DNA of 45,599 nucleotides from positions 1 through 45,599 of IMG/VR virus record IMGVR_UViG_3300020594_000001. One strand, given 5' to 3'. The position numbers and the translations under genes are program-made. Shown here in pieces: positions 6,854-36,617 of this stretch. The stretch comes from a virus. Lineage: Duplodnaviria; Heunggongvirae; Uroviricota; Caudoviricetes. Position 1 is the stretch's first letter; every line of letters starts with the position of its first letter. The notes beneath the pieces are model-generated. The model was not told the DNA's origin, did no database searches, and was given only the letters and a program-made list of their open reading frames with translations.

Positions 6854-6937
6854 TAGCCGCTGTCGTATAGAAAGATTTAAGGTTTTAGAAGTTCTTATTT
6901 AAGAGGGGATGCCAAAATCGTGCTAAGTAAAGTCCGG
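6854..6937 (-). repeat. Copy A of an ~85-bp element (ACTTAG-NN-CGATTTTGGCATCCCCTCT box, AT-rich tract, GCGGCTA)
   Basis: The 19-bp core at 6902-6920 is identical, in inverted orientation, to 36549-36567. Confidence 0.8.
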
Positions 6938-7012
6938 TGTCCGCTCACAGGAAGCAAGAATGGGCGCGGCTACAGCGAAGCGTCCACTCTTACTTTCTTT
7001 TAAATCAATGAC

Positions 7013-7750
7013 TTAATCTTCAGAGTATGCAGCGATAACTTCCGCAACGAACCCCGACCTCACAATGTCCTGACGGTCGAAGGTAATCACCTTTACGCTG
7101 GGGATGTGCTGGATGCGGTGCGCGGCGTCCAACAAGCCCGAATTGGGGATGTCTGTCTGGGCGGCATCGCCGTCAACCACGACTTTGCAGCCCTCCCCGA
7201 TACGGGTAAGAAAGAGCTTCATCTGGCCCGGGGTAGCGTTCTGCGCTTCGTCAAAGAGCACGAATGCGTTTCTGAACGTGCGGCCACGCATGAACGCCAG
7301 GGGAACCGCCTCGATCTTGCCCGCTTTCAGGAAATATTCTGTCGGTCCCTTGCCCAGGCGCTCGTAGAGGATTTCTTTTACGGGTGCCAAGTAGGGCTCA
7401 AACTTTTCCGCAAGCTCCCCTGGGAGAAAGCCAAACTCTTCTTCACTCTCGACTGCGGGACGCGTCACGATGATCTTGTCGACGCGGTGGCTTTCAAGCA
7501 TTTCTGCTGCAATGGAAGTTGCGATGTAGCTTTTGCCAGTGCCCGCTGGCCCCAGGCCAAAGGTGACATCAAAGTTCTTGATCGCGTTGATGTAGCGTTG
7601 CTGCTTGTCGTTCTGAGCAACCAGGGGCTCGACCGCGCGCTTGTGGGTCGCGGGGCGTTGCAGTTGCTCATGAAGGTCTTCATCGTTCGCTGCGACGCGC
7701 TTGCGATTCTGGGCCAGGGTAGGGACTTTACGTTTAATGCTGCGGGCCAT
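7013..7750 (-). CDS. phoH: PhoH family ATPase
   Basis: GPAGTGKS, RPAVE, FGFLPG, RGRTF, DEAQN, TRIGEG and GDAAQ motifs. Confidence 0.95.
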   Translation of the reverse strand: MARSIKRKVPTLAQNRKRVAANDEDLHEQLQRPATHKRAVEPLVAQNDKQQRYINAIKNFDVTFGLGPAGTGKSYIATSIAAEMLESHRVDKIIVTRPAVESEEEFGFLPGELAEKFEPYLAPVKEILYERLGKGPTEYFLKAGKIEAVPLAFMRGRTFRNAFVLFDEAQNATPGQMKLFLTRIGEGCKVVVDGDAAQTDIPNSGLLDAAHRIQHIPSVKVITFDRQDIVRSGFVAEVIAAYSED

Positions 7751-7776
7751 ATGTGCTACCTATGGGAGTGGGGAAC

Positions 7777-8094
7777 TCAGGGCTGGACGCCAAACCTCTT
7801 CATTTGGTCTGCGATGGCTTGGTTAATCCAGTCGATTTTCTCGTTGTCGCGAATCTGAAGGTCGCGGTATTGCTTCTTTAGCGCTGTGTATGCGCGTGAT
7901 AGCGTTGATAGGCGCACTTTCCCGTCCTGGCCCGGGACGATGGTGGGCGCGTCAGCGCTACGCTCCATAGCGCTGACGGGCGCTACGAGGATCGACTCTT
8001 TAGGGGGTTGCGTTGAGCAGCCGCACAAGATCGCTACTAAGCACAGGGTCACCAGGACAAGCCATGGCGGGACCGTTACCGGAGGGCGGTTCAT
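7777..8094 (-). CDS. Outer-membrane spanin (Rz1-like lipoprotein); start revised to MNRPP
   Basis: Hydrophobic signal ending in lipobox LCG-C; overlaps the Rz-like gene in another frame. Confidence 0.7.
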   Translation of the reverse strand: MNRPPVTVPPWLVLVTLCLVAILCGCSTQPPKESILVAPVSAMERSADAPTIVPGQDGKVRLSTLSRAYTALKKQYRDLQIRDNEKIDWINQAIADQMKRFGVQP

Positions 8095-8392
8095 CTTCTG
8101 TGGTCTCAACTAAGGAAGAAAGTGAATCGAACTGCGCTTGGTTGAACGCGAAGAACTCTGCGTTCTGACGCAATGCATCGTTTACTCGGGCTTCGCGCTG
8201 CGCAGCGTTGGCGACGACCCGAATGTCTGTCTGGCGTGCTTCTTGCAGCGCACGGGTGTTCGCCGCGTCGACGAACCGCCCCTTTGTATAGAATCCAGAG
8301 CCAAACCCAATGGCGAGCGCTACAGCGCCCACGATCAAGGCAGTCTTCAGTGCCGGGAGTTTTAGGGTGCTAAGAATCATCTTTTTTTCCAC
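8000..8392 (-). CDS. Inner-membrane spanin (Rz-like)
   Basis: N-terminal TM helix, helical periplasmic domain and a C-terminal Cys; last genes of the lysis cassette. Confidence 0.7.
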   Translation of the reverse strand: MEKKMILSTLKLPALKTALIVGAVALAIGFGSGFYTKGRFVDAANTRALQEARQTDIRVVANAAQREARVNDALRQNAEFFAFNQAQFDSLSSLVETTEDEPPSGNGPAMACPGDPVLSSDLVRLLNATP

Positions 8393-8693
8393 CCAAGCGA
8401 TCAGACCAGCCCAGCGCTACACGTCGAATGAACTCGGGAATGCTGGCTTGGATCGCGTCAAGTGCGTAGCCACCTACCGCTCCACCGCCCAGGCCGATCA
8501 CAGCTGCCATGGCAAGATGCGCGTCATGGGCAAAGCGGGCAGCAGCTGCAGCTGCGAATATCTCACCCACCAGCAGATTCACAACACCTTCGGAGAGACG
8601 GGGCTTTGCGCCCTCGCGGGTGAAGTTGCGCGCAGAACCCACCGCCCCGCCGACGAGCGCGACCAGAATCTGGGGGGTGAGCAATTCATTCAT
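8370..8693 (-). CDS. Holin/antiholin-like membrane protein (107 aa; start MNELLTP)
   Basis: Two to three hydrophobic helices and a charged C-tail (RLGGKKDDS); lies in the lysis cassette. Confidence 0.65.
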   Translation of the reverse strand: MNELLTPQILVALVGGAVGSARNFTREGAKPRLSEGVVNLLVGEIFAAAAAARFAHDAHLAMAAVIGLGGGAVGGYALDAIQASIPEFIRRVALGWSDRLGGKKDDS

Positions 8694-9133
8694 TAGGTGC
8701 CCTTCTTGGCGCACTCATTGATGATCTTGCGACCGACAACGAAGCAAAGCAGCGATAACTGGGGATACAGCACCATGGCGGTGGTCAAGGGCGGGTATGC
8801 AGCGACAAAGCCCACGCTCACAAGCGCCCAAACCAGTGAAGAGAGAAATAGCGAGTAACCGCCCAGGAAGCGGGCATTTATCTTGTGACTAAAGATGCCC
8901 ACTATGGACATGAGCGACATTGCAAAGAACGCAGCTGCAGTCAAGCTCAAGGGCAATATGCCGAAAGCCCAGTAGGTCGATGTTTCGAACATGCGGGGGT
9001 CGACTATGGCAGCGATCCCCCACGACATAAATAAGGTTGCGTTGAAGACTTCGAACACACGGGTTTTGGTAGCAAAAAGCCACTCGATACCCGATTCGAA
9101 GAGGTTGTCAAAGAAGGTGAGAATTCCGTTCAT
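8693..9133 (-). CDS. Holin-like multi-pass membrane protein (146 aa; start MNGILTF)
   Basis: About four predicted TM segments; directly after the endolysin; TAATG coupling to the next gene. Confidence 0.65.
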   Translation of the reverse strand: MNGILTFFDNLFESGIEWLFATKTRVFEVFNATLFMSWGIAAIVDPRMFETSTYWAFGILPLSLTAAAFFAMSLMSIVGIFSHKINARFLGGYSLFLSSLVWALVSVGFVAAYPPLTTAMVLYPQLSLLCFVVGRKIINECAKKGT

Positions 9134-9143
9134 GCTTTGCCCC

Positions 9144-9683
9144 TTAAGCCTGGTTATCAAAGAGTTTTGCGACCTCAATTGCGGCAATCCACTTCTTTTC
9201 CTGCCACTTGCGAAGGTCTTCCCGGTTAGAAAGAAAGAAGGTTTCAACGATGATCCCGCCCGCGTTGACGTAGCCCAGTGAGCCCCGGGCAGACTGGCTT
9301 TGGTCGATCCACCCCATATCGCCTCGCACACGCAATTCAAGCGTGCGTGCTATGGCGTTGGTCAGCTGGCGGGAAATGCCCTTGTCTTTGGGCAAAGAAA
9401 TCGTTTCCACACCCGTGGCAGCGGGGTTCGTCGCTGCGTTGGTGTGGAACTCGATTGCATAGTCGGGCTTGTGCTTACGAATAAGCCCGATCGCTGTATT
9501 GAGGGTTTGGTTCTCGCCGCCCTCGCCATCGGTAAAGACGGTGTGCCCACGTTCGCGAAGTTTCAGGGCGACGATGCTGCGAAACTCAGCCATGAGTTCG
9601 CTTTCTTTGATGCCGAAGTAGGTAGCGCCACTGTCGGGCTTATCGACCGTTGCGTGCCCCGCAGTGATTACAAACTTAGCCAT
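9144..9683 (-). CDS. Endolysin, N-acetylmuramoyl-L-alanine amidase (Amidase_3); start MAKFVITAGH
   Basis: Zn ligands in ITAGH, ESE and EFHTNA, plus catalytic VETFF. Confidence 0.9.
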   Translation of the reverse strand: MAKFVITAGHATVDKPDSGATYFGIKESELMAEFRSIVALKLRERGHTVFTDGEGGENQTLNTAIGLIRKHKPDYAIEFHTNAATNPAATGVETISLPKDKGISRQLTNAIARTLELRVRGDMGWIDQSQSARGSLGYVNAGGIIVETFFLSNREDLRKWQEKKWIAAIEVAKLFDNQA

Positions 9684-9712
9684 TGAAAAGTGTCCGTTTT
9701 CATATTGGCTCG

Positions 9713-9742
9713 ATTTTAAGTAAGCACTCACTTACACTTCAA
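9713..9742 (-). promoter_or_regulatory. Sigma70-like lysis promoter (TTGAAG-18-TAAAAT) with an operator (9719-9732) in the spacer
   Basis: -35 at 9737-9742, -10 at 9713-9718; operator AGTAAGCACTCACT. Confidence 0.65.
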
Positions 9743-9749
9743 GCGAAGC

Positions 9750-10160
9750 TTAGAACACCGGGCGCTCGGGCCAAGAGACGTTGCGCGGGAAACCCTCTTG
9801 TTGAGGCACGCCCAGCAAATTCCGCCGATATGTTGCAATTGCTTCTCGCTGGGCTTCGCTTAGTTCGCTCCACCGAAGCGGGTGTGTGACAACTGAATCC
9901 AGTTCGCGCAGCAGCATATTTCGCTGTGAACGCACTTGTTCAGCCAGAGTCTCGTCCTCGCTGGGGCCATCGTAGGGACGAATCTTCCCAAACTTGCCCG
10001 CCATTGCTTTCTCGAACAGTTCCCTGCTGTGCGCCTCACTGTCATGTGGCGAAGCGGTATATGGCACCGCTTCGTTTAGCTCGACGAAGAAGACGTCCAT
10101 GTCGATAGACGATTCATCGGGTGACGAAAACCGAAGATTGCTAACGGTGTTGTATTTCAT
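9750..10160 (-). CDS. Tail fibre assembly chaperone (Tfa-like)
   Basis: TASPHD, RNMLL and VPQQEGFP..V.WP motifs; directly after a fibre gene. Confidence 0.8.
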   Translation of the reverse strand: MKYNTVSNLRFSSPDESSIDMDVFFVELNEAVPYTASPHDSEAHSRELFEKAMAGKFGKIRPYDGPSEDETLAEQVRSQRNMLLRELDSVVTHPLRWSELSEAQREAIATYRRNLLGVPQQEGFPRNVSWPERPVF

Positions 10161-10169
10161 GTGCGTCCT

Positions 10170-11432
10170 TTATGCGTAACGAAGCATGAGATTGACGTGA
10201 TATCGGTAGGTGACGCCGTCACTTTGCGAAATGCTAGTCTCTACCCCGCCAACGCACCGCCACGAGCCCGTGAATCCATACGCGGTCTGCATCCACGAAG
10301 ACCTTCTAAGCGCGCTACCTGCGAGGGTTGCGCCAATCGCCATTTGACCTGTGTTGATCGAGCCAGACCCATTCGTAGCATGCAGGGTATAAGAGCCAAT
10401 TGCGCCCCCAGTCTTGCCCGCCAGTTTCGCGTCGATATCGGCAGCGGTCATAGGCGTCCCTACGTTCGCACTCGTCCAGACGCGGCCTCCATTGACATAA
10501 AGCTCAGCGCCGGGCATTTGGTATGTGCTGCCGTTGAAGTCCAGATAGCGACTGTTTGCCGCGTTCAGGAAAACGATGCCCCGGTTAGTGTTTCCGCCAT
10601 AACCGCGCAGGTAGACTGCTCCACTGCTGATGGTCAAGTTGCCAGTCATCGTGTCGCCCGTTTTTGCGACGCGAGAGCCCAGATTGACAGTTGCAAGCGC
10701 TTGTTGAACGAATGCGGTGGTGGCGATCTGAGTTGTATTACGCCCAACAGCGGCAGTCGGCGCGGTGGGCGTGCCGCTCAGCGCAGGGCTTTCTAGCAGC
10801 GCAAATGCGTCTGCCTGCTTGCCATCTAGGAGGTCGGCGTTTAGGTTTGTGTTGAGCGTGCCATTGTTGATCGGGATACTGCCGTTAGCGTTGCCCGCAT
10901 GCCGCCCGTCCAAAAGGTCAGCGTCTAGCCCCGATTCAGCACCGTCGTTGCCGGAGTGCCAGATTCGCGAGCCGACCTCTTCTGCTGCCTGTGTGATGTC
11001 AAGAAAGAACCCGCGCGTTTGGCCCCCTGTGTCGTAGATTTCTACGCGATTGCCCTTCAGCCGCAACGACATGTTGCCCGCCATCGTCGTGCCCGACTCG
11101 GGCTTTTCGAGAAGAATCGCAGCGCCGTTGTCGCCAGAGAGCGCCCTGCTCAGGGCTTGGTAAGCAATCTGTGCGGCTTGGGCGACTGGCGCTTCGCCTG
11201 CTTCTGTAGGGGCGGATAGGTCGAGCACCATCGCCCATGTGACAGGACTCGTGCTAAGCAGAATAAACAGCTGACGTAGGTCCGACCTGTAGCAAAGCAT
11301 CCCGAGTTCAATATTGACGGTGGGGAACGCGCTGCCAGAACTGTTCGACAGTGAGGTTCGGTCGTTGTTTAGTAGCATCGCCAACGAACTCTGAAGCGAT
11401 GCTGTGGACTGTATATGGGTATAGCTTTGCAT
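10170..11432 (-). CDS. Tail fibre protein 2
   Basis: N-terminal domain paralogous to fibre 1, LDADLLDG repeats, GTPTAPTA...TTQIATTAFV, KTGDTMTG, and a G.WRC.G tip. Confidence 0.88.
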   Translation of the reverse strand: MQSYTHIQSTASLQSSLAMLLNNDRTSLSNSSGSAFPTVNIELGMLCYRSDLRQLFILLSTSPVTWAMVLDLSAPTEAGEAPVAQAAQIAYQALSRALSGDNGAAILLEKPESGTTMAGNMSLRLKGNRVEIYDTGGQTRGFFLDITQAAEEVGSRIWHSGNDGAESGLDADLLDGRHAGNANGSIPINNGTLNTNLNADLLDGKQADAFALLESPALSGTPTAPTAAVGRNTTQIATTAFVQQALATVNLGSRVAKTGDTMTGNLTISSGAVYLRGYGGNTNRGIVFLNAANSRYLDFNGSTYQMPGAELYVNGGRVWTSANVGTPMTAADIDAKLAGKTGGAIGSYTLHATNGSGSINTGQMAIGATLAGSALRRSSWMQTAYGFTGSWRCVGGVETSISQSDGVTYRYHVNLMLRYA

Positions 11433-11482
11433 TATTGCGCCCTGTGATTACTCATTACCGCAAGCTCAACGCATCTGCCCAT

Positions 11483-11950
11483 CTACTTACTGCCAGCAAG
11501 TATGAACAGGGCGTCAAGATCGGGCTTGGGCTCAGACACCAACGCCCACGTTGCTTGAAGGAACGGATTGGCGCGTTCCCACGTATCAGCGTCATACTCA
11601 ATCTTCGCTTTCATTTGCTGCACCGAGTCTTCAATAGCAGCGATCATCCCTTCAACCTCGATGAGCTTGCCCACTTCCAGAAGCGCCAGACGTCCTTGGC
11701 GGCGCGTGACGGAGGGAGGGACGGCGGTGGGTAGTCCCCCTGCCGCCCGGAGGTTTGCAACTAAATCAGCAACTTGATGCGCAGTCGGCTGAGGCACCCC
11801 ATCTATTTCCCAAGCGACAATCTCTGAATCAACCTCTTGGATGCCTTGGTTGTTTGTAGTTCTGTAGCCCACCCAGAAGTTTTCCCACCACTTCGCCTCT
11901 GGATACTCAGCTTCAATGACGTATGCAATCTCTCGATCTGTAATCAGCAT
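11483..11950 (-). CDS. Tail fibre chaperone (XkdW-like); start MLITDREI
   Basis: ENFWV...EIVAW...PQPT plus VTRRQGRLAL segments; follows fibre 1. Confidence 0.7.
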   Translation of the reverse strand: MLITDREIAYVIEAEYPEAKWWENFWVGYRTTNNQGIQEVDSEIVAWEIDGVPQPTAHQVADLVANLRAAGGLPTAVPPSVTRRQGRLALLEVGKLIEVEGMIAAIEDSVQQMKAKIEYDADTWERANPFLQATWALVSEPKPDLDALFILAGSK

Positions 11951-11972
11951 TCTCAATACCCTCAAGTTCTAC

Positions 11973-13889
11973 TTAGTAAGCCTCGACCTGCCTTCCCAGC
12001 ATGGACCCGAACGTTTCGCCGTATGTTCCTGCCATGACGACGCCAACGCATACATAGTTCGAAGGGAGACGCTTTGTCCCGGCGCTGCCATTCACAGCCA
12101 GCGTGTATTCCGAACCAGTCCAGCGTATTGACTGTGTGTGAGCCGCTGGTGTGAACGTGCTGGGCTTGCTGCTGACCTCAGACCAAGTGGGCCAGCGCGT
12201 AGCTGTCGCAGGCACACCGGACGTAATATTGCCCCACGAGTGGTTGTGAGCCGCTGGCGCGAACGTAGTTGGCTTGCCCCCGACGTCGCCCCATGCAATT
12301 GCCAATGCAGCCTTAACCTGTGCCGGAGTGGACGGGCGAATGTAGTCGCTACCGATCGTCCCGGTTCCCGTGTAGATATGAGTGATTGACCCATTCGTGG
12401 TGGCATACGTCGATCGGAATAACCGAGCCCATACGTCCCCCGACGAATTTCGCATCATCGGTGTGCTTGGGGTAGCAGCGTCTGTGAACTCACCAGAGTG
12501 GTAGACGCGATTCGTGCCTACGTAGTAATGTCTGTTCGATTCGACGCGGTCAGATTTCAGCGTAAAGCTGGTGTTGTGCGTATAGGAGTGAAACGATATG
12601 TCGTCACTCTCTTCGCCGCCCTTGCCAACATACCAAGTGTTCGCGCTTCCATCAGAATTCTGCCCCTGCAGGTAAGAAGCGCCATCGTTTCTAATCTGCA
12701 CATACCTGTCGATAACCGGCGCTGCACGGTCGACTGGCGTGTAACCTAGCGCGTCTTGCTTTTCAGCAATAGTGATACCTAACGCGACGATCTGCGCTTG
12801 CAGCTTCCCGAAGGCGTCGATTACGCTATCCGTTGCAGCTATGGCTGCATTAGCGGTTGCGCTCAAGCCGTCGAGCACCACTTCGCGCACGCGTGCAGCT
12901 GTGAAGTATTTGTTCGTTGCTCCTTCGGGAACCGCGTCAGTGCTTCCAGGCGACGGCGATATCTCGACGTAACCAGTCCCGCTCCACCGATACTGCGCGT
13001 TTGCCGACTTGTCGACGTAAATCTTCCCGCTCTCTCCCGATGCAGGAAATTCAGGAACCGTGTCGAACTCCAGCACGTCGTCGACGTAGCTGGGCAGATG
13101 AATCGCTGGAATTTTGGCATCTGCATCCAAGGGCGCGACGCCGTTAGCAGCACCTTTCTGGCTCGCCTCGATCTTCTCGCTAAGCGCGGCAGTCAGACCC
13201 GGAATTTCTGCAATGGTGGGCGGCTTAACCGTCGAGAACGTGCGCTCCCAAGCGGTCCAGACGCCCGAATAGCGGCCCCGGAAAGCGAAGCACCCGCCGT
13301 TGATGCTGCCCTGGTTGTTATACGGCACGGCGATCTGGGTGATGTTTCCATCGCCATTTCGCCCGCTACCGTATTCAAGATTCCAGACAAAGAAGTATTG
13401 CCCGAAGCCGGGACCGTTGGTGTGACTCCCCAATAGCAGCACCGGGCCAATCCCGGGCTTCGTGTTGGTTGAGTCGTTCCAATCGAGAACGCCCGCTGTG
13501 GTCGTTGCGCCACCAAAGCGAAGCAGCGCTGGCGTCGAGACAGGTTTGTTAGCGTCTGACGTATTGTTGACGCTGCCCAACCCCAGATTCGCACGCGCGG
13601 TTGCGGCATTGGCAAGGTCGCTCAGGTTGCTTTCTTTCGCAAGCTTGGTCTCTATCTCCGCGACAACGTCGCTCAGGTCAGTTACAAGCTCCCATTGCGC
13701 AGGCTCGACCGCGACCAGCTGATACAGCTTGCTTTCGTCTTCCCTGAAGCACTGCATGCCCACTATGAGGTTAGTGGTGGGGAACGCACTGCCCGCGTTG
13801 TTGGATATCGCGGTTTTGTCGTTGTCCAGTATCGCCCCCAGCGACGCGCTGATCTTCATGCTGGGGCTGATTTCGGTATAGTTCTGCAT
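11973..13889 (-). CDS. Tail fibre protein 1 (638 aa; start MQNYTEI)
   Basis: Mosaic fibre modules (GVAPLDADAKIP, YRWSGTGY) and HxH repeats (AAHNH, AAHTQ). Confidence 0.88.
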   Translation of the reverse strand: MQNYTEISPSMKISASLGAILDNDKTAISNNAGSAFPTTNLIVGMQCFREDESKLYQLVAVEPAQWELVTDLSDVVAEIETKLAKESNLSDLANAATARANLGLGSVNNTSDANKPVSTPALLRFGGATTTAGVLDWNDSTNTKPGIGPVLLLGSHTNGPGFGQYFFVWNLEYGSGRNGDGNITQIAVPYNNQGSINGGCFAFRGRYSGVWTAWERTFSTVKPPTIAEIPGLTAALSEKIEASQKGAANGVAPLDADAKIPAIHLPSYVDDVLEFDTVPEFPASGESGKIYVDKSANAQYRWSGTGYVEISPSPGSTDAVPEGATNKYFTAARVREVVLDGLSATANAAIAATDSVIDAFGKLQAQIVALGITIAEKQDALGYTPVDRAAPVIDRYVQIRNDGASYLQGQNSDGSANTWYVGKGGEESDDISFHSYTHNTSFTLKSDRVESNRHYYVGTNRVYHSGEFTDAATPSTPMMRNSSGDVWARLFRSTYATTNGSITHIYTGTGTIGSDYIRPSTPAQVKAALAIAWGDVGGKPTTFAPAAHNHSWGNITSGVPATATRWPTWSEVSSKPSTFTPAAHTQSIRWTGSEYTLAVNGSAGTKRLPSNYVCVGVVMAGTYGETFGSMLGRQVEAY

Positions 13890-13891
13890 CG

Positions 13892-15262: not shown

Positions 15263-15282
15263 GTTGCGTCGCTATCCACCGA

Positions 15283-15735: not shown

Positions 15736-15769
15736 AGTGTTCTCCCAGCCATATGCTGATTGCTTGAAT

Positions 15770-15783
15770 AGTGAGTGCTCACA
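15770..15783. promoter_or_regulatory. Palindromic operator copy (AGTGAGTGCTCACA)
   Basis: 13 of 14 positions match the consensus. Confidence 0.6.
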
Positions 15784-26701: not shown

Positions 26702-26703
26702 GA

Positions 26704-27687: not shown

Positions 27688-27780
27688 GACACAGGTTATC
27701 AAGGGAAGCTCTTACATTTCAACGAATGCCAAGCCTATAATGTCGACCCAATATCGCGATGACACTATCCGGGGGAGAGA

Positions 27781-28532: not shown

Positions 28533-29002
28533 AGCTTCCCACTCCTGATAGCGTTCTGAATCATTCGATGCACGCGCGACGCAATCTTGGGCTCGCGCTC
28601 CAGGTAAGCTCGTTCGAAGAACTTGCCGCCCACGTCCATTCCCGCAGAAGCTTTCGCGCGCGACTTAATGCCCAACTGATACGCGCCCGACCCATAAGGG
28701 GCCAGGCCCTCGTGCATCAGCATCATGTAGTCGCCCACCCTGCTGTCGTCACGGTCACCATCAGGATGGTCTGGGTCGACATATACAAGCAGGCGCACGC
28801 GACGGTTGATACCACCACGGTCTTCGTCTATCTTGATTGCGCCCTCAAGATCGCCCTTGTCCACGGGCGCGTTGTTTCGGGCCAGTTCTTGGATGATTCC
28901 TGACTCGTCCCGCATTACGTCAACAACGTGCTTGACGACCTTTGGGCCAAATTGGCTTAAACGAATACCCAGCCCAACGGGATTGCCAATGATTCGACTC
29001 AT
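28529..29002 (-). CDS. HK97 gp10-like neck/tail component
   Basis: ARNNAPVDKGDLE.AI and GGKFFERA motifs. Confidence 0.78.
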   Translation of the reverse strand: MSRIIGNPVGLGIRLSQFGPKVVKHVVDVMRDESGIIQELARNNAPVDKGDLEGAIKIDEDRGGINRRVRLLVYVDPDHPDGDRDDSRVGDYMMLMHEGLAPYGSGAYQLGIKSRAKASAGMDVGGKFFERAYLEREPKIASRVHRMIQNAIRSGKL

Positions 29003-29364
29003 TCAGCGTTCTCGATATCCGCTTCAATCTCGTTGTGATCGTGCGTCCCGAACGTGCTAAACCGGGGTCTGATCGCCACAACCTTCAGAGTGAACCCCGC
29101 TACACGCAGTCGATCAGACATGTTTATCTTTTCGTCCGGCGCAACCAGCAGCCATGCATCTGACAATACTTCTTGGGCATGGCCCCGAGTTGCGGAGCTA
29201 TCAGCGCGCACCGACGTGTCTTTCACCGACTGTCGCAGCTTCAGCACCGCGCAGCGTGTTCTGCGCTCCCGCGAATACATCGGTGTGCCGTAGATGTCAT
29301 TGCCCATTCGCTTTGACACATACAGCTTGATTGGCATGGGGAGAATCGATCGAACGCCGCGCAT
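28999..29364 (-). CDS. Head-tail adaptor/closure protein
   Basis: D.YG.P N-terminus and beta-rich 121-aa size; position. Confidence 0.68.
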   Translation of the reverse strand: MRGVRSILPMPIKLYVSKRMGNDIYGTPMYSRERRTRCAVLKLRQSVKDTSVRADSSATRGHAQEVLSDAWLLVAPDEKINMSDRLRVAGFTLKVVAIRPRFSTFGTHDHNEIEADIENAE

Positions 29365-30125
29365 TACACTCTCCGAATGCGAATCTTCTGGGGTGCTAGG
29401 TAGGGTTTGAGCTCGCTCGCAGCAGCTGGGCTGATGCCCATCGCTGCAATCGTGCGTTCGTCAGCAGCTTTCCAACTTTGGAAGAAATTCTTGGATTCGC
29501 CCACCGTGATCGACTGGATACCGCGTCTGCGGTAATCAAGCACTGGGTCGCCCCCACACACTTCGTTCGCTTCGACCACCTGGGCGCGTGCTAGAGCGTC
29601 CTTTACCTCTGCAGGCACAGAGGCCCAGTCAGCAAGGTCTAAGATAAGCCGCGTTTGCGGGTCGATGAAGCACAGACGCCCAATCATGCGTTTAGCAAAG
29701 AGCATTGCGCTGATGCGGGTGCTTTTGTCGACATCATTCCAGCCATTAAGTGCAGGAATGTCATACCCGATCATCACCGCGTCGCCATAGCTGGCAAAGC
29801 TATTGACTCCCGGCACAAGCACTGCATCAGCTTCGATAATGTATTCGACCGAACGGTAAAATACACCCGCGTCGGCCGCCAGCGTCAGGTCGATTAACCT
29901 GGCGGCGCGCACCACGCCCTCGTCAAGCAAGTTCAGCGAAGCAGGGATTTCTAGCACAAACCCATCATCGCCAAGACTGCCCTCGCTAACAGCGGTGAAT
30001 GCCAGAAGTTCATCACCAGACTGGGCGACGACGCGGTAATGAGCGCCCACTACGGGCTCGAACACGTTCAAGTCGTTGTAATTAACCGACAGCGTGACGG
30101 GTTGGCCCGCAGTGTAAGCGTTCAT
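29364..30125 (-). CDS. Head-tail connector protein
   Basis: VNSFASY segment, AQVVEA and IQSITVGE motifs; position after the capsid genes. Confidence 0.68.
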   Translation of the reverse strand: MNAYTAGQPVTLSVNYNDLNVFEPVVGAHYRVVAQSGDELLAFTAVSEGSLGDDGFVLEIPASLNLLDEGVVRAARLIDLTLAADAGVFYRSVEYIIEADAVLVPGVNSFASYGDAVMIGYDIPALNGWNDVDKSTRISAMLFAKRMIGRLCFIDPQTRLILDLADWASVPAEVKDALARAQVVEANEVCGGDPVLDYRRRGIQSITVGESKNFFQSWKAADERTIAAMGISPAAASELKPYLAPQKIRIRRV

Positions 30126-30126
30126 A

Positions 30127-30594
30127 CTATTCGCCCTGCTGTGCTTGAAGGATTTCGTCGATCAGCTTGGCGATGGAAGTGCCTTTGGCACCTATGGGGT
30201 CTCCGATCTTGCGCAGCCCTGCTATGCCATCTTTGTCAGCGACGGCCTCAAGGTCTTCACGCGTATATGTGGGCTTCGGTTCGCCACCGCCATTCCCACC
30301 TTGCGTGCCCTGGTCGCCTTCTTCACCATCACCACCCTGATTGTCGCCCTGCAACTCGGCCAGCGACTTGAGCTTTTCGGGCTGCAGCACGTTTGCGCAA
30401 TCCCAAACCGCGCGCTCCTGGGCGATGGCACCTATGTCTTCGCCAGTCTCTGCATCCACCACAGTCAGCAATGCAGATAGTGCGAAGGCTTCTTTGGCAG
30501 ACACGTCGCCCACGCTAACCGCATTCTCAAAGAACGTGACGCCCATCAGTCCCGTGAACGTCTCATAGCCCTTTTGGGTGATCTTGATCTTCAT
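30127..30594 (-). CDS. Virion-associated hypothetical protein with a small C-terminal helical domain
   Basis: Gly/acidic linker followed by YTREDLEAVADKDGIAGLR; AAGGGA Shine-Dalgarno. Confidence 0.7.
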   Translation of the reverse strand: MKIKITQKGYETFTGLMGVTFFENAVSVGDVSAKEAFALSALLTVVDAETGEDIGAIAQERAVWDCANVLQPEKLKSLAELQGDNQGGDGEEGDQGTQGGNGGGEPKPTYTREDLEAVADKDGIAGLRKIGDPIGAKGTSIAKLIDEILQAQQGE

Positions 30595-30611
30595 TTGTTT
30601 CTATCCCTTGA

Positions 30612-30644
30612 ATAAAAAGGGGTATGGCGCGAACCATACCCCTT
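30612..30644 (-). terminator. Rho-independent terminator after the major capsid gene
   Basis: 11-bp stem AAGGGGTATGG/CCATACCCCTT, then TTTATT on the minus strand. Confidence 0.8.
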
Positions 30645-30656
30645 GTCACACCGTAT

Positions 30657-30670
30657 AGTGAGTGCTTACT
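30657..30670. promoter_or_regulatory. Palindromic operator copy (AGTGAGTGCTTACT) between the capsid stop and the terminator
   Basis: Consensus match. Confidence 0.7.
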
Positions 30671-30676
30671 TACGTT

Positions 30677-31603
30677 TTAGACGTTAGTAATACCCTTCAG
30701 GCGAGCGACCGAGCGCGTGGACTTCAGCGCAAGACCGGCATACCACTTCACGCGGATGCGGGTAGCATCCTTGTTCTGGACGGTGCCGATGTTCTCGACA
30801 CGCAGACCAGCAGTATCGCCGCCATACAGACCGTGCAGGCCGTCTGCTTCGTTACAGCGCAGGGCATAGACCGAGCAAGTGTCGGCGTTGGTGCCTTGCG
30901 TTTCAGCGCCAGACATGAAGTCGTTGATGATGATGGGCACGCCGTTGTGCGACAGCATCGGGCGACCGAACGCTTCAACCATCAGGTCAGAAGCAGTGTT
31001 ACCGCCAGCGGCGCGCATCAGGGTGCGGAACGCACGGGCGGTGCCCTTGCGCATCATGAGAACATCAGCGCCATGGGGCACGGTGTCAAGCAGTTCGTCC
31101 AGCATGGACAGCGTGAGCGAAGCGCCATTCTCGCCGGCAGAAATGGTCTGCGCAGCGTTGGAGTCGGCGTTTTCGGTCAGGCGGGTCAGGCCGTCGAACT
31201 CTTTGGGGTTGGTGGTAGCGTTACCGTTCATCAGCGCGCGGTGATACTGGCGGGCCAGACGCTTGGCTTTCTGCGAAACCTGCACGGCCAGCTGGCTGGT
31301 CGTGTCGGACTCGGTCTCGTTCAGGAACTTGTCGACGTCCACGTCGCCAGCCAGAATCTTCAGTCGAGTCGTGACTTCTTTGAACTTCGCAGCACCTTCA
31401 ACGATTTCTTCGTTGGGGTCGATGAATTTGGGATCGTTGCCCTGCACGTCGTCAACCTCACGGTTGTAGACATACGCCTTCGAGTTCACGCGGGCGAAGG
31501 GCAGAATCGCGAACAGGTCGTCGCGGTCGATAACTTCTTCGATAAGGCCCGACAACAGGGTGTTGTTCGAGAGCTTATCAGCTTCTACTTTGAGCAAAGG
31601 CAT
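30677..31603 (-). CDS. Major capsid protein (HK97 fold)
   Basis: LAGDVDVDKFL, NPKEFDGL, LTLSMLDELLD and RVKWYAGLA motifs; follows scaffold and portal. Confidence 0.92.
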   Translation of the reverse strand: MPLLKVEADKLSNNTLLSGLIEEVIDRDDLFAILPFARVNSKAYVYNREVDDVQGNDPKFIDPNEEIVEGAAKFKEVTTRLKILAGDVDVDKFLNETESDTTSQLAVQVSQKAKRLARQYHRALMNGNATTNPKEFDGLTRLTENADSNAAQTISAGENGASLTLSMLDELLDTVPHGADVLMMRKGTARAFRTLMRAAGGNTASDLMVEAFGRPMLSHNGVPIIINDFMSGAETQGTNADTCSVYALRCNEADGLHGLYGGDTAGLRVENIGTVQNKDATRIRVKWYAGLALKSTRSVARLKGITNV

Positions 31604-31685
31604 AGATTACTCCTTGGAAATTGCTCGTTAATCGGTAAACCAATCAACTCACTCAATTCCCTTAGAGCAAGCTATACAGGACAAA

Positions 31686-31738
31686 ACTATACAACAAAAG
31701 TGCCGAAATTGCAAGTGAGCGCTCACTTGCAATCTCGG
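31686..31738 (-). promoter_or_regulatory. Capsid promoter (TTGCAA-17-TATAGT) with a 26-bp perfect palindrome (31708-31733) containing the operator
   Basis: -10 at 31686-31691, -35 at 31709-31714; palindrome ATTGCAAGTGAGCGCTCACTTGCAAT. Confidence 0.72.
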
Positions 31739-31758
31739 TCAATTTTTACTGCCGGAGG

Positions 31759-32628
31759 TTATGCTTTGAGCAAGTCGCCAAGACCCTTGGCAACCTTCTC
31801 AGAAGCGCTCAGTTCGACCTGGTGCTTGATGGGCTTGCTCGCGTTCTTGGCAGTGCTGCTGGATGCGCCCGTCTTCATTTTGGAGCGAAGAATCTCGTCG
31901 CGATCGGGGTCAGCCTCGACGATGGACTTCAGCGCTGCATCGAAGTCCAGCGGCTCGCCCGCGCTGTTGACTAGCATTGTGCGGTTAGCTTGCCCTGCGG
32001 GCTTGTCGTAGCCAACCACTGCGCCGTCAACAAACTCGAAGTGAGGACCATATACGACGCGTGCCTTGCGGGGCGTCATAGCGACCTCTTCGGGCAAATA
32101 CTTCGATTGCGAGAATGCAGCGCCCACGGTAAGCTCAGCAATCTGCGACTTGAGCTCAGACTTTTCTTTGCGCTCGTTTTCCAGCTGCTCGGTCAGCGTG
32201 CCCCGCTCTTTGTTAAAGCCCTCGACCATCTGGGATTTCAAGCGGTCCCACTCACCCTTTTCTTCGAGCTTGCGGGTTTCCGCGTCAGAGCGGTCTTGCA
32301 GGAGTTTGCGAACCTCTTCAGGATCGATGCCCTCGAAACGCTTTTCGAGCGCTTCCTTCTCTTCTTTCAGGCGGGCGTTTTCCTTCTTCTTCGCCATGAT
32401 GTCTTTCAGAAGCCTGGCTTCCTCGTCGGTGGGCGCTTTCTTTCCTTCGCCGCCACCATTGCCGTCGTCACCTTCGCCGCCCTTTTTTGCTTTAGCAGCG
32501 GCAGCAGCGGCTTCGTCAGCTGCAATTTGTTCCGGGGTGCGCCCTTCGCCACCGCCAGAGCCACCCTCGCCACCCCCTTCGGGAGCGCTCAAGCGGTGCA
32601 GTGCCATCAGTCGTTGGAATCGCGTCAT
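31759..32628 (-). CDS. Capsid scaffold protein
   Basis: Gly-rich N-terminus, long charged coiled coil, position between portal and capsid. Confidence 0.8.
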   Translation of the reverse strand: MTRFQRLMALHRLSAPEGGGEGGSGGGEGRTPEQIAADEAAAAAAKAKKGGEGDDGNGGGEGKKAPTDEEARLLKDIMAKKKENARLKEEKEALEKRFEGIDPEEVRKLLQDRSDAETRKLEEKGEWDRLKSQMVEGFNKERGTLTEQLENERKEKSELKSQIAELTVGAAFSQSKYLPEEVAMTPRKARVVYGPHFEFVDGAVVGYDKPAGQANRTMLVNSAGEPLDFDAALKSIVEADPDRDEILRSKMKTGASSSTAKNASKPIKHQVELSASEKVAKGLGDLLKA

Positions 32629-32674
32629 GTTATTTACCTTCCCCTTTCTCTTGGGTGGTTAAAGTTGATAATGA

Positions 32675-34357
32675 TCAGGTCGCTTGTTTGACCGTTTTGT
32701 TCGCCAAGCTGTTGGTAGCAGCTTTCTCGAACTCTTTCTGCTGGCCCGTAGCTTTGGCGGATGTGCCACCATCTGCCACCTCAACCTTCGGGGGCCAAGT
32801 TGCAATCTCTTTCTTCATCTTTTCCAGCAAGTCTGCTTTAAGCTGCGGGAAAAGCTTGTTGATTAGCGCCATCATCTGCTCGCGCCGCACCGAATCTGGC
32901 GCAGCTATCAGAGACAGGTTGCTCGCGATGCTGAATTCGTCACGCAAGCCCCTGACGTCAAAGTTGTCTGGGTAAGAGACGAACCGCTTGCTTTCGTCGA
33001 TGGTTTCGTTGTTCCAGCGCGCGACAAACCGCACCAGCTTGGCTTCAATAAGCTCAAGCGAGTCAGCTTTGGCGGCGAGCATCGAATTGACGCGCTCAAA
33101 GTCGTAAGCCTTGGCGACACCGGAAGAGTTATCGATCCCTGCGCCGTTGTCGTCTTTGGTGCGCTCGCCAGACAAGCCCGTCGTGTGGTAAATCTCAGCA
33201 ATGATCTTGTTGATCACCTGCAAGATGACCTCAGCTTGCTTAACGTCTGGGCTAATGAACTGAGGCGGACTGCCCGCTTCGGGGTTGTAAGTGAAGATGC
33301 GGCTAGTGCCAAGCTCGACCATCTTTTCTTGAACCGTCTTTTCTTGCACCAAGACGCTGTCGTCGTGGCTGACACCGCCAGCAGGTATTACCAGTTGAGA
33401 GAACGTCTGGTCTTGAATGATCGCGTCCAGGTTTGACAGGTAGTTGGCAACCGCCCGGTCGAGGTATGCGACATCATCGATCATCGAGCGAGACCAGTAG
33501 AGCTCGTCTGAAATGATGTTGTCGCCACTGAAGACGGGAACTTGCCCGAACCCGTGCGGGACCGGGTCATTAATCTCGATACGGAGACCTGTTGCAGAAA
33601 CGCCACTGGGGTCGATTGTGCCGACATGGCCCGTGCGCCCTGCATTGATTTCCGCAACCGCAGCACGGGTGCCTGGGTTCGACTGCATACCCGCGTCTAC
33701 CGTGAAGATGGTCGACTGATGTCGCTCCCACAACCGATACCTGCTGATCATGAGGCCGGTCGAGTTCAGCGGGTCTTCGTCGTCACGAACCTGCTCATGA
33801 ATCAGAATCCAGTTGAGCTCGTTCGATTCGTCGTAGCTCATGTCTAGCACGTTGATAGGGTCAACGATATAGGCATACGTGCGAACGCCCGCCTTGCGCT
33901 CATCAGCAAGCGTTGCAACCGCTTCGCTCTTGTTCGTGTCGACCACAACCCAGATACGCCCCTGGCGCGACGTGCGGTTTGACACCTGCTTCATGAAGTC
34001 TCGAATATCCAGCCCGTTCAGCGTCGCGTTCTTCCAGAACTTTTTGACCGATTCGGGCACATCTTCGCTACGCTCGATGGGCATTTTGAAGAGGTATTTG
34101 TCAACCAAATCAACCACTTCACGAGTGTGATTGAAGCGATACGCGCGCTTGACTCGGTCTTTGTATTCGGTATCGCCCTCTTTGAGGTATTTGAAGATGT
34201 TGTCGCCAGTGAACCACTCGCGCCCACCCTTATAGGTGGCATCGAGAAATTCCCAGTGAGAAGACAAGCGTTCATACTCAGGGTGACGCCTGCTGATGAA
34301 GGAGACGACCTTTTTGGTCTGTGCGTTACGCGATTCGCGTCGAGAAGTTTTCTTCAT
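32675..34357 (-). CDS. Portal protein
   Basis: 560 aa directly after TerL; Y.GG.E...Y..R.KRAYRFNHT...VD and SGVAKAYDF motifs. Confidence 0.88.
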   Translation of the reverse strand: MKKTSRRESRNAQTKKVVSFISRRHPEYERLSSHWEFLDATYKGGREWFTGDNIFKYLKEGDTEYKDRVKRAYRFNHTREVVDLVDKYLFKMPIERSEDVPESVKKFWKNATLNGLDIRDFMKQVSNRTSRQGRIWVVVDTNKSEAVATLADERKAGVRTYAYIVDPINVLDMSYDESNELNWILIHEQVRDDEDPLNSTGLMISRYRLWERHQSTIFTVDAGMQSNPGTRAAVAEINAGRTGHVGTIDPSGVSATGLRIEINDPVPHGFGQVPVFSGDNIISDELYWSRSMIDDVAYLDRAVANYLSNLDAIIQDQTFSQLVIPAGGVSHDDSVLVQEKTVQEKMVELGTSRIFTYNPEAGSPPQFISPDVKQAEVILQVINKIIAEIYHTTGLSGERTKDDNGAGIDNSSGVAKAYDFERVNSMLAAKADSLELIEAKLVRFVARWNNETIDESKRFVSYPDNFDVRGLRDEFSIASNLSLIAAPDSVRREQMMALINKLFPQLKADLLEKMKKEIATWPPKVEVADGGTSAKATGQQKEFEKAATNSLANKTVKQAT

Positions 34358-34365
34358 GATCGCCT

Positions 34366-34394
34366 ATTGTAAGTGAGTGCTTACTTACATTCAA
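34366..34394 (-). promoter_or_regulatory. Sigma70-like portal promoter (TTGAAT-17-TACAAT) with an operator (34372-34385) in the spacer
   Basis: -35 at 34389-34394, -10 at 34366-34371. Confidence 0.72.
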
Positions 34395-34395
34395 G

Positions 34396-35640
34396 TTAAA
34401 TTGAAACGCCCGCAATTTCGATCTTCTTAACGGGGAACTGATATTCGATGCAGTAGCCCAGTGCGTCAGCACTGTGCTCTACACCCGCGTCTTTATCGAT
34501 GTCACGACTGCCGCGCTTGTAGATCGTCTGTTCCAGCGAGTTGATCAAATGCTTGCATTTGGGGTCGACGTAGAGTCTGACGCGCCCATCAGCAGCTTTG
34601 AGCATGCGATTTACTGAGTTCACCCGGTCAGAGATCGGGGGGTGCTTGCGTCGGTAGCGCTGGCGCTTGAACCCCTTTTCTCTGAAGATGTCCAGGTCAG
34701 ACTCGCCACGCGCGTGCTGGCGGTATTGCCCCGCTGGGTCGGGAAACAGAATGCACTGGCGTATGTAGCGCCAATAGCGCTTTTCAAGCTCTTCGCTGGT
34801 CTCTTCGGTGTTCGACCCAAATTGCACGATTTCATCGATTGCCCAGACGCTGCCATCTTCTTGAGGCTGCAGAATCACCGAGCTCATGGGGTCGATGTTG
34901 AAGTCTTGCCCTATCCAGATGGGTTTGGCCGGGTCAAAGGCGCACTCACGAACATGGATTCCACGCTGGAACGGGTGATAGACACGCCCGCTCATGGACT
35001 CGAAACTGGCTTCGAACTCTTGGCGATATGACTTTTCGTCCATATCGCGCTTGGCAGCTTCTATTTCTTCTGGGGGGATGAAAGGCGAACAGGATGTTGG
35101 AAATTGCCAGCTAATCCATTTTCCCTGGGTGTAGTTCTCTTCTTTCTGCCCAAGCACATACAGTTCATAGAGGAAGTTATATGCTTTGGGAGTGCCAATG
35201 AAGAGCGCATGCCCGCCCGTAGACGCAAGCGTTGGGCGCAGAACCTTGGTCCATGCGTCGGGGTCGATGTCCTGGACCTCGTCCATGACCAGGTAGTGCA
35301 CACCCACGCCGCGCAGGGAGTCGGGGTTGTCAGCGCCCTTGAGCTCGATGCGGGTTCCATTAATCAGCTTGACCGACATCGCGGTCTCGTTGATCTTGGC
35401 AACCCACTTTCTGGGCAGCGAGGCGATCAGCACGGGCCACATGATCTGCTTTGCCATGCGATAAGAGGGCGCGACATACCAAACCAGTCGGTTACGCACC
35501 CGGGCATAGCGAATCATCATCACCATGGCGAGCATAGATTTACCAAACCGCCGCCCCGCCACCACCACCTTGAAGCGGGACTTCGCGTTGTAAACCTCCA
35601 TCTGCTTTTCGTGCAGAAAGAGCTCGTTGATCGCTGCCAT
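34396..35640 (-). CDS. terL: Terminase large subunit
   Basis: Walker A AGRRFGKS, LRG, Walker B VMDEVQ, IGTP coupling motif, and nuclease residues GQDFN and HSADALGY. Confidence 0.95.
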   Translation of the reverse strand: MAAINELFLHEKQMEVYNAKSRFKVVVAGRRFGKSMLAMVMMIRYARVRNRLVWYVAPSYRMAKQIMWPVLIASLPRKWVAKINETAMSVKLINGTRIELKGADNPDSLRGVGVHYLVMDEVQDIDPDAWTKVLRPTLASTGGHALFIGTPKAYNFLYELYVLGQKEENYTQGKWISWQFPTSCSPFIPPEEIEAAKRDMDEKSYRQEFEASFESMSGRVYHPFQRGIHVRECAFDPAKPIWIGQDFNIDPMSSVILQPQEDGSVWAIDEIVQFGSNTEETSEELEKRYWRYIRQCILFPDPAGQYRQHARGESDLDIFREKGFKRQRYRRKHPPISDRVNSVNRMLKAADGRVRLYVDPKCKHLINSLEQTIYKRGSRDIDKDAGVEHSADALGYCIEYQFPVKKIEIAGVSI

Positions 35641-36329
35641 TACTCGTCCTCGCCCTCGACGACACGATCGTCGACTTCGGGCAGCGATCCATCAGTATCC
35701 ACAAGCTCAGCGTCGCCCATATCGATATCTGGCACGCCAAGCTCGTCTGCAGCTTCCAGGGCAGCTTTGCGCTGTATTTCTTGAATGTCTGCAGCGGAAA
35801 GCTCTTTAATGACGAGCTCGGGCGGCGTCTGGTCACCATCGTTCTCGTCGTCTCGAATGCCAAGCAGCTTGTAGCGCTCATCGCGCAAGGTCTTAAGACC
35901 TTCAGCAGCCATCTTCAGAGTCTTGACAGAGTGATACGCGGTGGCAATGGGCAGATTCTTCTGCTTCGCTTGGGCAATCTCATTCCAAATGAGCTTGGCT
36001 AACCCCGCAGCCATCTTGTAGTGCTCTTCTTTGGTCTCGTTGGTGCGTTCAGCGATCTTTTCAGCTTCAGTCACCGCTTGGCGCTGGATCGCCTCTTTTA
36101 CGAGTTCTTCGCGTTGCGCCCGAGCTTCACCCTTCTTGACCCCTTCGCGGGCCATTAGCGTTTTGAGGGTGCTTTCTGACTTGCCATACTTCTTTGCAAG
36201 CTCAGCGAGCGTTGCTTCGCCCGCAGCCCATAGGGCTTTGGCTTCGGCGCGCTCAGTGGCGGTCATATGTCGACCCGCCACGCGAGGCTTCCTTCCAGGC
36301 GTCTTTCGCTTGGCGGGGCTAGTAGCCAT
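35640..36329 (-). CDS. terS: Terminase small subunit-like protein; start MATSPAK
   Basis: N-terminal HTH (ATLAELAKKYGKSESTL), helical core, acidic tail; TAATG coupling to terL. Confidence 0.72.
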   Translation of the reverse strand: MATSPAKRKTPGRKPRVAGRHMTATERAEAKALWAAGEATLAELAKKYGKSESTLKTLMAREGVKKGEARAQREELVKEAIQRQAVTEAEKIAERTNETKEEHYKMAAGLAKLIWNEIAQAKQKNLPIATAYHSVKTLKMAAEGLKTLRDERYKLLGIRDDENDGDQTPPELVIKELSAADIQEIQRKAALEAADELGVPDIDMGDAELVDTDGSLPEVDDRVVEGEDE

Positions 36330-36457
36330 GGCCGCCCCCAGCAGACGAAAAAATAGGGTCGGCATTGGAGGATTGCCGACCCTTTACACCGGAGCCTTCA
36401 TGCGTGACAGCGGAGGTCACCGCTGACAGAACACACTCTACCCGCTTCCCGAGAAAA

Positions 36458-36471
36458 AGTAAACACTTACT
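36458..36471. promoter_or_regulatory. Degenerate operator copy (AGTAAACACTTACT)
   Basis: 13 of 14 positions match the consensus; upstream of terS. Confidence 0.55.
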
Positions 36472-36531
36472 AACACTGTCAGCAAAAAAAAGACGCACAG
36501 GCTTAGCCGCGCCCACCCCTTCACCGGCTAA

Positions 36532-36617
36532 CAGGATTTCACTTAGGTCGATTTTGGCATCCCCTCTATATCTACAACCTTTCATTCTTTAAACCTTCTT
36601 TATTACGATCGCGGCTA
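36532..36617 (+). repeat. Copy B of the ~85-bp element
   Basis: ACTTAG-GT-CGATTTTGGCATCCCCTCT (36541-36567), AT-rich tract, TACGATCGCGGCTA; inverted relative to copy A. Confidence 0.8.

Follow-up and report, generated by a model that had tools for sequence, protein, structure and literature searches.

A conserved, functional-looking non-coding unit was found at three places in the genome of a temperate phage (IMG/VR record IMGVR_UViG_3300020594_000001). Two of the copies, A and B, lie in the window analyzed here, a stretch of 45,599 nt that forms the first 45.6 kb of this 109,599-bp record. Judged from its sequence, the element is best read as a phage-specific promoter/operator cassette, of which copy B would fire antisense into a winged-helix gene; we hold this reading with confidence and doubt in about equal measure. 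Copy A is located between phoH and the gene of a 225-aa protein (phrog_2500) and is co-oriented with transcription. Copy B is located between a 112-aa winged-helix gene and terS/terL and opposes transcription, nearly all genes flanking the two copies being on the minus strand. The sequence-only reading that preceded this work had described an inverted pair, with A pointing at the replication operon, B pointing antisense into the winged-helix gene, and the block from terS to phoH bracketed between them. The reported positions proved correct to within 2 nt, and the orientations and the bracketing, which recurs in relatives, were confirmed. A and B are indeed inverted, but they are not a pair, as a third copy C was found in the same record outside the window (core at 47,555-47,573, minus strand, 18/19 core match).

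Sequence and Anatomy of the Element

Copies A and B constitute the top inverted repeat of the window by length (67 nt, 73% complementary, 29,592 nt apart). Their core, CGATTTTGGCATCCCCTCT, was reported as identical and is so at 19 of 19 positions, and none of 100 dinucleotide shuffles gave two core matches at ≤3 mismatches. The element stands where an extent of ~85 bp had been given for it, but the similarity between A and B reaches ~45 nt further upstream, to GACGC...TAGCCGCGCCCA, which folds as a terminator-type hairpin. With this upstream hairpin included, copy A covers 6854-6990 on the minus strand (GGA at 6935; GCGGCTA ending at 6854) and copy B covers 36490-36617 on the plus strand (GGA at 36534; GCGGCTA ending at 36617).

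Comparison of six close copies revealed a conserved block of ~44 bp, the size of a promoter footprint, running from ACTTAG/AGTTAT through ACAAC, and conservation drops on either side of it. The order within the block is TTA(G/T)(C/G)(A/T), the spacer CGATTTTGGC(A/T)TCCCCTC, TATATC/TATATA (TTAAAT in copy A), and ACAAC. The spacer between the −35-like and −10-like hexamers is an invariant 18 bp, CGATTTTGGCWTCCCCTC. In copy A, the block (6895-6926, minus strand) comprises the −35-like TTAGCA at 6926-6921, the core at 6920-6902, and the −10-like TTAAAT/TAAATA at 6901-6895. In copy B, the block (36543-36578, plus strand) comprises TTAGGT at 36543-36548, the core at 36549-36567, TATATC at 36567-36572, and then ACAAC.

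Downstream of ACAAC, a tract of 30-49 nt with 71-86% A+T and nearly without G is present in all six close copies. The AT-rich tract of 34-36 bp in the earlier description is thus real, but it is strand-asymmetric, with 43 C versus 2 G over the six copies, and this C-over-G bias follows the orientation of the element and not the genome strand. The tract and end boxes of copy A span 6854-6901 on the minus strand (1 G in 34 nt; TACGA at 6867-6863; GCGGCTA at 6860-6854). Those of copy B span 36568-36617 on the plus strand (0 G in 36 nt; TACGA at 36604-36608; GCGGCTA at 36611-36617, overlapping the opposite-strand stop codon of the winged-helix gene). These boxes make up a 5′ hairpin arm after the tract, TACGA-NN-GCGGCTA in this phage and CTAAGTTAAGGGCTGG in the related prophage of a Castellaniella sp. 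described below, while the 3′ arm varies among copies; in copy A they are the 5′ arm region of the hairpin ACAGCG/CGCUGU.

The hairpin on the other side of copy A follows the phoH stop codon (6958-6989, minus strand; GAGTGGACGC, a 12-nt loop, GCGCCCATTC) and is shared between A and B. With an A-rich 5′ side and a T-rich 3′ side, it resembles a bidirectional terminator. Counterpart hairpins with compensatory changes in their arms were found in a metagenome contig (L094, 14-bp stem) and at the Castellaniella copy. The homologous hairpin beside copy B (36512-36495) and a T8 run (A8 at 36484-36491 when read on the plus strand) make up a minus-strand terminator at 36484-36512, which closes the ParB-like/winged-helix operon.

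Three further features of the copies were considered and set aside. The reverse-strand mini open reading frame (ORF) AGAGGGG-ATG-CCA-AAA-TCG-TGC-TAA has AAG in place of its ATG in copy C and in Castellaniella, and its Shine-Dalgarno (SD)-like run abuts the ATG. An 88-codon ORF at 36319-36585 (minus strand) that begins inside copy B has no equivalent at copy A. A second −35-like box downstream occurs in Castellaniella (+70/71) and in own A (+77) and is absent from own B, C, and L094.

Conservation in Close Relatives

A scan of 596 Gb of genomes revealed two real sites, both on a contig of Castellaniella sp., in a syntenic prophage of ~70% nucleotide identity to this phage. One follows phoH and corresponds to A, and the counterpart of B has the winged-helix gene on one side and terS on the other; a distance of 35 kb separates the two, and their relative orientations are as in this phage. 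Metagenome contigs retrieved with homologues of the 225-aa protein contained an orthologue of A with the same core (L094/L095, 66% protein identity), together with three diverged versions (L096, L097, and L099). The core is conserved in related genomes: six copies, from three phage lineages of only ~70% identity in coding DNA, match it at 18-19 of 19 positions.

A hidden Markov model of the close copies recovered just the six copies and one degenerate C-like site in Castellaniella. Exact-core scans gave no match in IMG/VR other than in the window's own record; among genome contigs, six further matches were chance matches and Castellaniella supplied the only real ones, and all 14 matches in metagenomes were due to chance. 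No match to the element was obtained by blastn against GenBank phages, and no further orthologue of B was found among terS relatives at 65-67% identity (L103-L106), in which the intergenic space is absent or the flank too short.

Copy C resembles copy B to ~30 nt beyond the core and is located within a 3-kb gene-poor region. Upstream of it (G000 47,600-47,800; L003 1560-1760), several direct CTTAG(T/G)GC-type boxes occur, CTTTAAAAGCACTAAG twice, and the Castellaniella counterpart of the region (contig 59,560-59,700) carries arrays of GTAAGGTA and ACCCTTAAGTAAG beside the degenerate core AAAATTTTGGCTTCCCTCC. A 39-codon ORF (MTTIERFEIMQEH...) with a good ribosome-binding site begins ~235 nt downstream of copy C (G000 47,190-47,306, minus strand; L003 ~1136-1252), and a 600-bp GC-rich non-coding stretch with repeats comes after it.

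A Homologous Cassette in More Distant SSU5-Like Phages

The wider family was sampled in 18 IMG/VR relatives, in the interval from phoH to the phrog_2500 gene. There, a hairpin is usually followed by CTTGGG boxes (one to three, at a spacing of 10-11 or 21 bp), then by TCCCGT, by an AT-rich stretch of 50-90 nt containing a ribosome-binding site and the ATG, and finally by CCCAAG boxes. Both kinds of box are strongly enriched (CTTGGG upstream, 21 observed versus 1.7 expected; CCCAAG downstream, 21 versus 0.9). Together with the element of this phage, 22 cassettes align without gaps as ACTTGGG-N12-TCCC(G/C)T plus a TA-rich hexamer, and in the aligned cassettes TTGGGN and TATAAA/TATAGA/TATATA are separated by 16-18 bp, which is sigma-70 spacing. 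In five genomes the pattern CTTGGG-N11-13-YCCCNT occurs 2-3 times per genome, and the reversed-pattern control gave 0.

In these relatives, the cassette at the phoH boundary is located 60-95 nt before the phrog_2500 gene. A second cassette, found in six of them, lies between the winged-helix orthologue and a gene for a protein of 126-133 aa (gene X); it is co-oriented with terS, and its TCCCGT precedes the start codon (ATG) of X by ~40 nt. The two loci face the same direction, at a distance of 34-39 kb. They bracket the module but point one way, and bracketing is therefore a family trait, whereas inversion is not. One relative (G005) independently carries a reverse-facing box at the B locus, convergent with the forward one around one AT tract.

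The phoH boundaries of phage SSU5 and Pseudomonas phage nickie hold no CTTGGG cassette, nickie having only a long hairpin there. In SSU5 (JQ965645, 33,436-33,630), ACTTCC-type boxes (CAACTTCC and CCACTTCC) and a palindromic GTAAGTAAGTGAC box are present instead, and the box sequence therefore seems to be lineage-specific around a common ACTT. A search of the literature on SSU5 promoters gave nothing relevant.

The inverted CCCAAG boxes, one to three per gene, fall within the first ~15 codons of the phrog_2500 homologues (L116-L133), in varying frames, where they are read as TQ, AQ, SQ, or PK codons. Two relatives (L121 and L122) show a matched change from CTTGGG/CCCAAG to CCTGGG/CCCAGA. The CCCAAG boxes are a DNA- or RNA-level constraint written into the protein N-terminus.

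The Element as a Proposed Promoter/Operator Cassette

The evidence for a promoter/operator cassette comprises the footprint-like size of the block, its fixed spacing of two boxes, and the placement of the copies. Copy A (in this phage, Castellaniella, and L094) and copy C are located 25-200 nt after a terminator-type hairpin and 95-235 nt before a co-oriented gene. Co-oriented placement upstream of a gene was observed for A in 3 lineages and >10 distant relatives, for C, and for the B locus in 6 relatives. In the proposed mechanism, a weak −35-like hexamer (TTAGCA/TTAGGT; TTATCA in a relative) and the −10-like TATATC/TATATA would form the promoter, and the invariant 18-bp spacer probably docks a phage or host regulator; the combination of an invariant spacer with weak hexamers suggests a dedicated factor. 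Transcription would begin at the conserved ACAAC and proceed through a G-free, unstructured leader of 30-49 nt into the hairpin. The first 25-40 nt of each predicted leader are unpaired, and the folding z-scores of the forward leaders, the only strand tested (0.68, −1.40, 0.18, −1.51, and 0.00), give no support for a structured RNA.

Transcription of the replication operon (the 225-aa protein, an Hfq-like protein, helicase, and primase) would begin from copy A, just past the phoH terminator, and copy C would start a transcript toward the 39-codon ORF. From copy B, a convergent antisense transcript would enter the winged-helix/ParB-like operon at its 3′ end, and the hairpin with its T8 run, presumably duplicated together with B, would end that operon ahead of the late (terS) promoter.

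Several observations weigh against this proposal. No sigma-70 promoter was called at A or B by a consensus scan. The −35-like hexamers TTAGCA, TTAGGT, and TTATCA match TTGACA at just 3-4 of 6 positions, relatives have TTGGGN, and the −10-like hexamers (TATATC, TATATA, TATAAA, and TATAGA) retain A2 but usually miss the final T, although the spacing of 16-18 bp is retained in 22 cassettes. A plain promoter would not typically have an invariant spacer. Copy B opposes all neighboring genes, and no co-oriented gene follows it in this phage or in the Castellaniella prophage. Moreover, each of the five close copies of A and B has the better T-run of its adjacent hairpin on the opposite strand, which would also fit a transcript running backward through the element. 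Finally, the phage's own sigma factor was rejected as the reader of the cassette, as gene and cassette do not co-occur: the complete genomes G010 and G007 have CTTGGG cassettes and no sigma match, and G003 and G011 have the sigma gene and no cassette at the locus.

The gene of this sigma-like factor is located at 102,364-103,047 (minus strand); Pfam recognizes its region 2 only, a match to the extracytoplasmic function (ECF) superfamily is sub-threshold, and the Castellaniella prophage has an orthologue of 51% identity. Two other sigma factors were also rejected. For sigma-54 (TGGCAC-N5-TTGC; GG/GC 10 bp apart), the element has TGGCAT-CCCCT-CT without GC at −12, and an alternative register GG-N10-GC at GGACTTTACTTAGC exists only in own A and L094 and not in B, C, or Castellaniella. 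The sigma-32 consensus CTTGAAA-N13-15-CCCCATNT is real in Castellaniella and clearly in use by the host (9 matches versus 0 in the control). The element resembles it only in overall architecture: its sequences are CTTAGCA/GTTATCA and CCCCTCTAT, the A/T step is displaced, and TTGAA is not retained at −35.

Origin of Copy B

The antisense orientation of B had been taken to argue against promoters. This argument does not hold, because in the six distant relatives with a second cassette the B locus is co-oriented with terS and ~40 nt before a start codon; the antisense orientation is therefore a derived state. Copy B is best explained as an inverted duplicate of the phoH terminator plus A, which would have replaced the ancestral cassette and a lost gene X, since B shares the phoH-side hairpin with A and gene X is gone (no homologue of X was found in this phage or in the Castellaniella prophage).

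Copy B could on the other hand be a by-product of this duplication, with only A and perhaps C functional, which gave the winged-helix operon its terminator and was kept similar by gene conversion. The duplicated hairpin with its T8 run is a good terminator and now serves that operon, and gene conversion is evident in Castellaniella. Against this, a 30-nt block of B is identical in two phages of ~70% coding identity, and G005 independently carries a reverse-facing box at the same locus. In addition, own B retains the ancestral TCTATATCTACAAC, lost from own A, and the conservation of B is therefore not merely conversion from A. These observations argue that copy B would not be a mere relic, and we consider the by-product explanation very unlikely.

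Alternative Explanations

The opposite strand offers a different explanation, which we regard as unlikely: the reverse complement of the element would be the 3′ part of a transcript ending at the adjacent hairpin and U-run, that is, a small RNA derived from a 3′ untranslated region (UTR) or antisense in nature. Such an RNA would have purine-rich, SD-like stretches, would be a possible client of the phage Hfq-like protein, and could pair with the sense copy in the leader of the replication operon. Strong T-runs on the reverse strand (T8 at own B, T9 at Castellaniella B, and TCTTTTGTTTATTT at Castellaniella A), the position of reverse B in the 3′UTR of the winged-helix operon, and an Hfq-like gene two genes downstream of A, here and in relatives, are consistent with it. 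The duplex of the Castellaniella A leader with reverse B reaches −104.6 kcal/mol versus −50.3 ± 5.2 for shuffles, whereas the same duplex in this phage is at background (−52.6 versus −52.7 ± 5.1). A promoter for the reverse transcript is not apparent at A, no Rfam family matched, the z-scores of the forward leaders (the sole strand tested) span 0.7 to −1.5, and cassettes of the wider family lie near the downstream start codon and in the same orientation. A more specific form, in which copy A and reverse B make complementary RNAs and the winged-helix/ParB-like 3′UTR (hairpin plus U8) acts in trans on the head of the replication operon with the phage Hfq-like protein, appears highly improbable. 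The sequence-only reading had favored a replication origin or helicase-loading site, in which a protein box stands beside an AT-rich unwinding element; such a site would be used at two or three places. The layout of box and tract (30-49 nt, 71-86% A+T) and the position of A directly upstream of the helicase/primase operon agree with an origin, as does the setting of C in its gene-poor 3 kb with repeated CTTAG-type boxes, several of them direct within ~250 bp upstream. So do the one to three helically phased CTTGGG boxes before the AT tract and the one to three inverted CCCAAG boxes after it in relatives, and the two convergent boxes around one AT tract in G005. However, own A, own B, and the copies of two close relatives have a single box and no iteron array, the three copies are dispersed and in both orientations, and no Rep or DnaA-box features were found, with no DnaA boxes seen on reading the copies. 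The AT tract of relatives holds a ribosome-binding site and ends at a start codon, the C-over-G bias goes with the element instead of the genome strand, and the cumulative GC skew has no turn at A or B. A RepA_C search of the genome gave no match, but none was obtained in any control genome either, so this search is uninformative. The origin reading is unsupported, and we think it quite unlikely.

A DNA docking site without a promoter role is about as doubtful as an origin. Such a site would bind, for instance, a nucleoid-type, partition, or packaging protein (e.g., the neighboring ParB-like or winged-helix one) and would show where the virion module begins and ends. It would accommodate copies that differ in orientation, the genes for ParB-like and winged-helix proteins and terS adjoining B, the terS-phoH bracketing kept in the family, and an invariant 19-bp core that is the best-conserved part of the element. 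Yet parS-type sites are palindromic and the core is not, conservation runs polar through the TA-rich hexamer and ACAAC, and the position just upstream of start codons in relatives is that expected of a promoter/operator. Also proposed earlier was a recombination substrate, whose inverted copies would allow inversion of the 29.6-kb virion module or its exchange from phage to phage. The inverted copies do stand at the module boundaries, B itself seems to be born of an inverted duplication, and the phage encodes RecA and SbcCD-like proteins. Furthermore, the Castellaniella copies are near-identical over ~80 nt (from 11 nt before the core to ~50 nt after it), suggesting recent gene conversion. Inversion is nonetheless unsupported and the least credible explanation to us, as a search for a serine invertase (PF00239) gave no match in the 109.6-kb record and a match in 13 of 14 control genomes, the core lacks dyad symmetry, and only 19 bp are identical in this phage. 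Besides, this phage and the Castellaniella prophage, the only two genomes known with inverted copies, are collinear across the module, and in other relatives the copies are direct while the gene order is unchanged. A miniature inverted-repeat transposable element was rejected, as TAGCCGC...GCGGCTA flanks own A and B only and the Castellaniella genome holds just the two prophage copies.

Genes and Other Features Around the Copies

The record encodes, in addition to RecA and SbcCD-like proteins, the DNA polymerase III alpha subunit, ribonucleotide reductase, RtcB, and a tyrosine integrase. The gene of the 225-aa protein (6105-6782, minus strand) is the first downstream of copy A and is followed by the Hfq-like, DnaB-like helicase, and primase genes. 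Distant relatives of this phrog_2500 protein exist in Salmonella phage SSU5, Klebsiella/Escherichia phage-plasmids, Pseudomonas phage nickie, and Rhizobium phages. The protein had no match in Pfam or NCBIfam. Its AlphaFold model is all-helical (pLDDT 94, pTM 0.88), a Foldseek search of the PDB gave nothing at E ≤ 0.001 (best VIA-align Z 5.2, uninformative), and its relatives in the AlphaFold DB are uncharacterized only. The phoH-like gene (7013-7750, minus strand; PF02562, E = 2e-73) lies upstream of copy A and is the last of the lysis/virion block.

The 112-aa winged-helix gene (36615-36953, minus strand; phrog_900, weak MarR-like signal) adjoins the B-locus cassette in every relative examined, and its product is a candidate binder of the element. 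Between copy B and terS, a late-operon leader separate from the element occupies 36348-36478 on the minus strand, with a palindromic promoter box at ~36455-36478 and a hairpin (GGGTCGGC...GCCGACCC) with a T6 run at 36348-36382. The layout of a palindromic box and then a strong hairpin with a T6-T9 run within ~100 nt, directly before the terS start, recurs in Castellaniella and in distant relatives (L019, L027, L039, L044, and L060, around 2900-3000) and suggests that the late genes may be under antitermination-type control. The start of the longest terS ORF (36365; ORF 35640-36365, minus strand) is probably wrong; a conserved ATG is present at 36329 after the leader terminator, and the database form starts from 36281 (213 aa). 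Scans for tRNAs and Rfam families gave nothing at the copies (Rfam had no match in the window), and Rfam detected only a permuted tmRNA and one tRNA over 45-65 kb of the record.

Significance and Comparison With Known Systems

If the element is a promoter class, it would represent a third regulon of this 110-kb SSU5-like temperate phage, besides the palindromic and AAACGTTTGCAT classes, and would give a handle on the switching of replication versus packaging genes. The cassette points to a factor that would read the invariant 19-bp box, and copy B, antisense where the packaging genes border on the winged-helix operon, would be a timing device that experiments could test. The family-wide combination of upstream CTTGGG boxes with CCCAAG boxes in the first codons clearly exemplifies a constraint at the DNA level on the N-terminus of a protein. 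No major concept is changed by these results, which provide a useful annotation for an uncharacterized phage group.

Among known systems, iteron origins with AT tracts (lambda ori, plasmid oriV) are similar in that a protein box abuts an AT tract near replication genes and the boxes are phased in relatives; they differ from the single box of the close copies, the ribosome-binding site in the relatives' tract, and the three dispersed copies, and no initiator gene was recognized here. The face-to-face pR-pL promoters of coliphages 186/P2 and the antisense promoter sar of P22 are comparable, as B and the pair in G005 would transcribe convergently across the boundary of a regulator gene; the distances and partners differ, and the B locus gives no evidence of a lysis-lysogeny switch. 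Phage lambda has three CII promoters with a common activator site, and one of them, paQ, fires antisense into the regulator of late genes. Like these CII-activated promoters (pRE, pI, and paQ), the element is found at few places in one phage, with a poor −35 region and a shared conserved site. Unlike them (TTGC-N6-TTGC in lambda), the sequences being unrelated, the whole 18-bp spacer is conserved here, and the candidate promoters are known from sequence. The PeSL cassettes of T4-like phages are also multi-copy, with a promoter-like box and a leader that head gene groups at places of gene gain and loss, to which the loss of gene X at the B locus would be the parallel in this phage; the differences are that only three copies exist here, the leader is G-free, and one copy is inverted. 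The other two motif classes of this genome, the palindromic box and the AAACGTTTGCAT cassette, are of the repeated promoter-leader type as well, with motifs that differ from that of the element. Taken together, the element most likely belongs to a known kind, the promoter/operator cassettes that are repeated within a phage genome, and its inverted copy is unusual.

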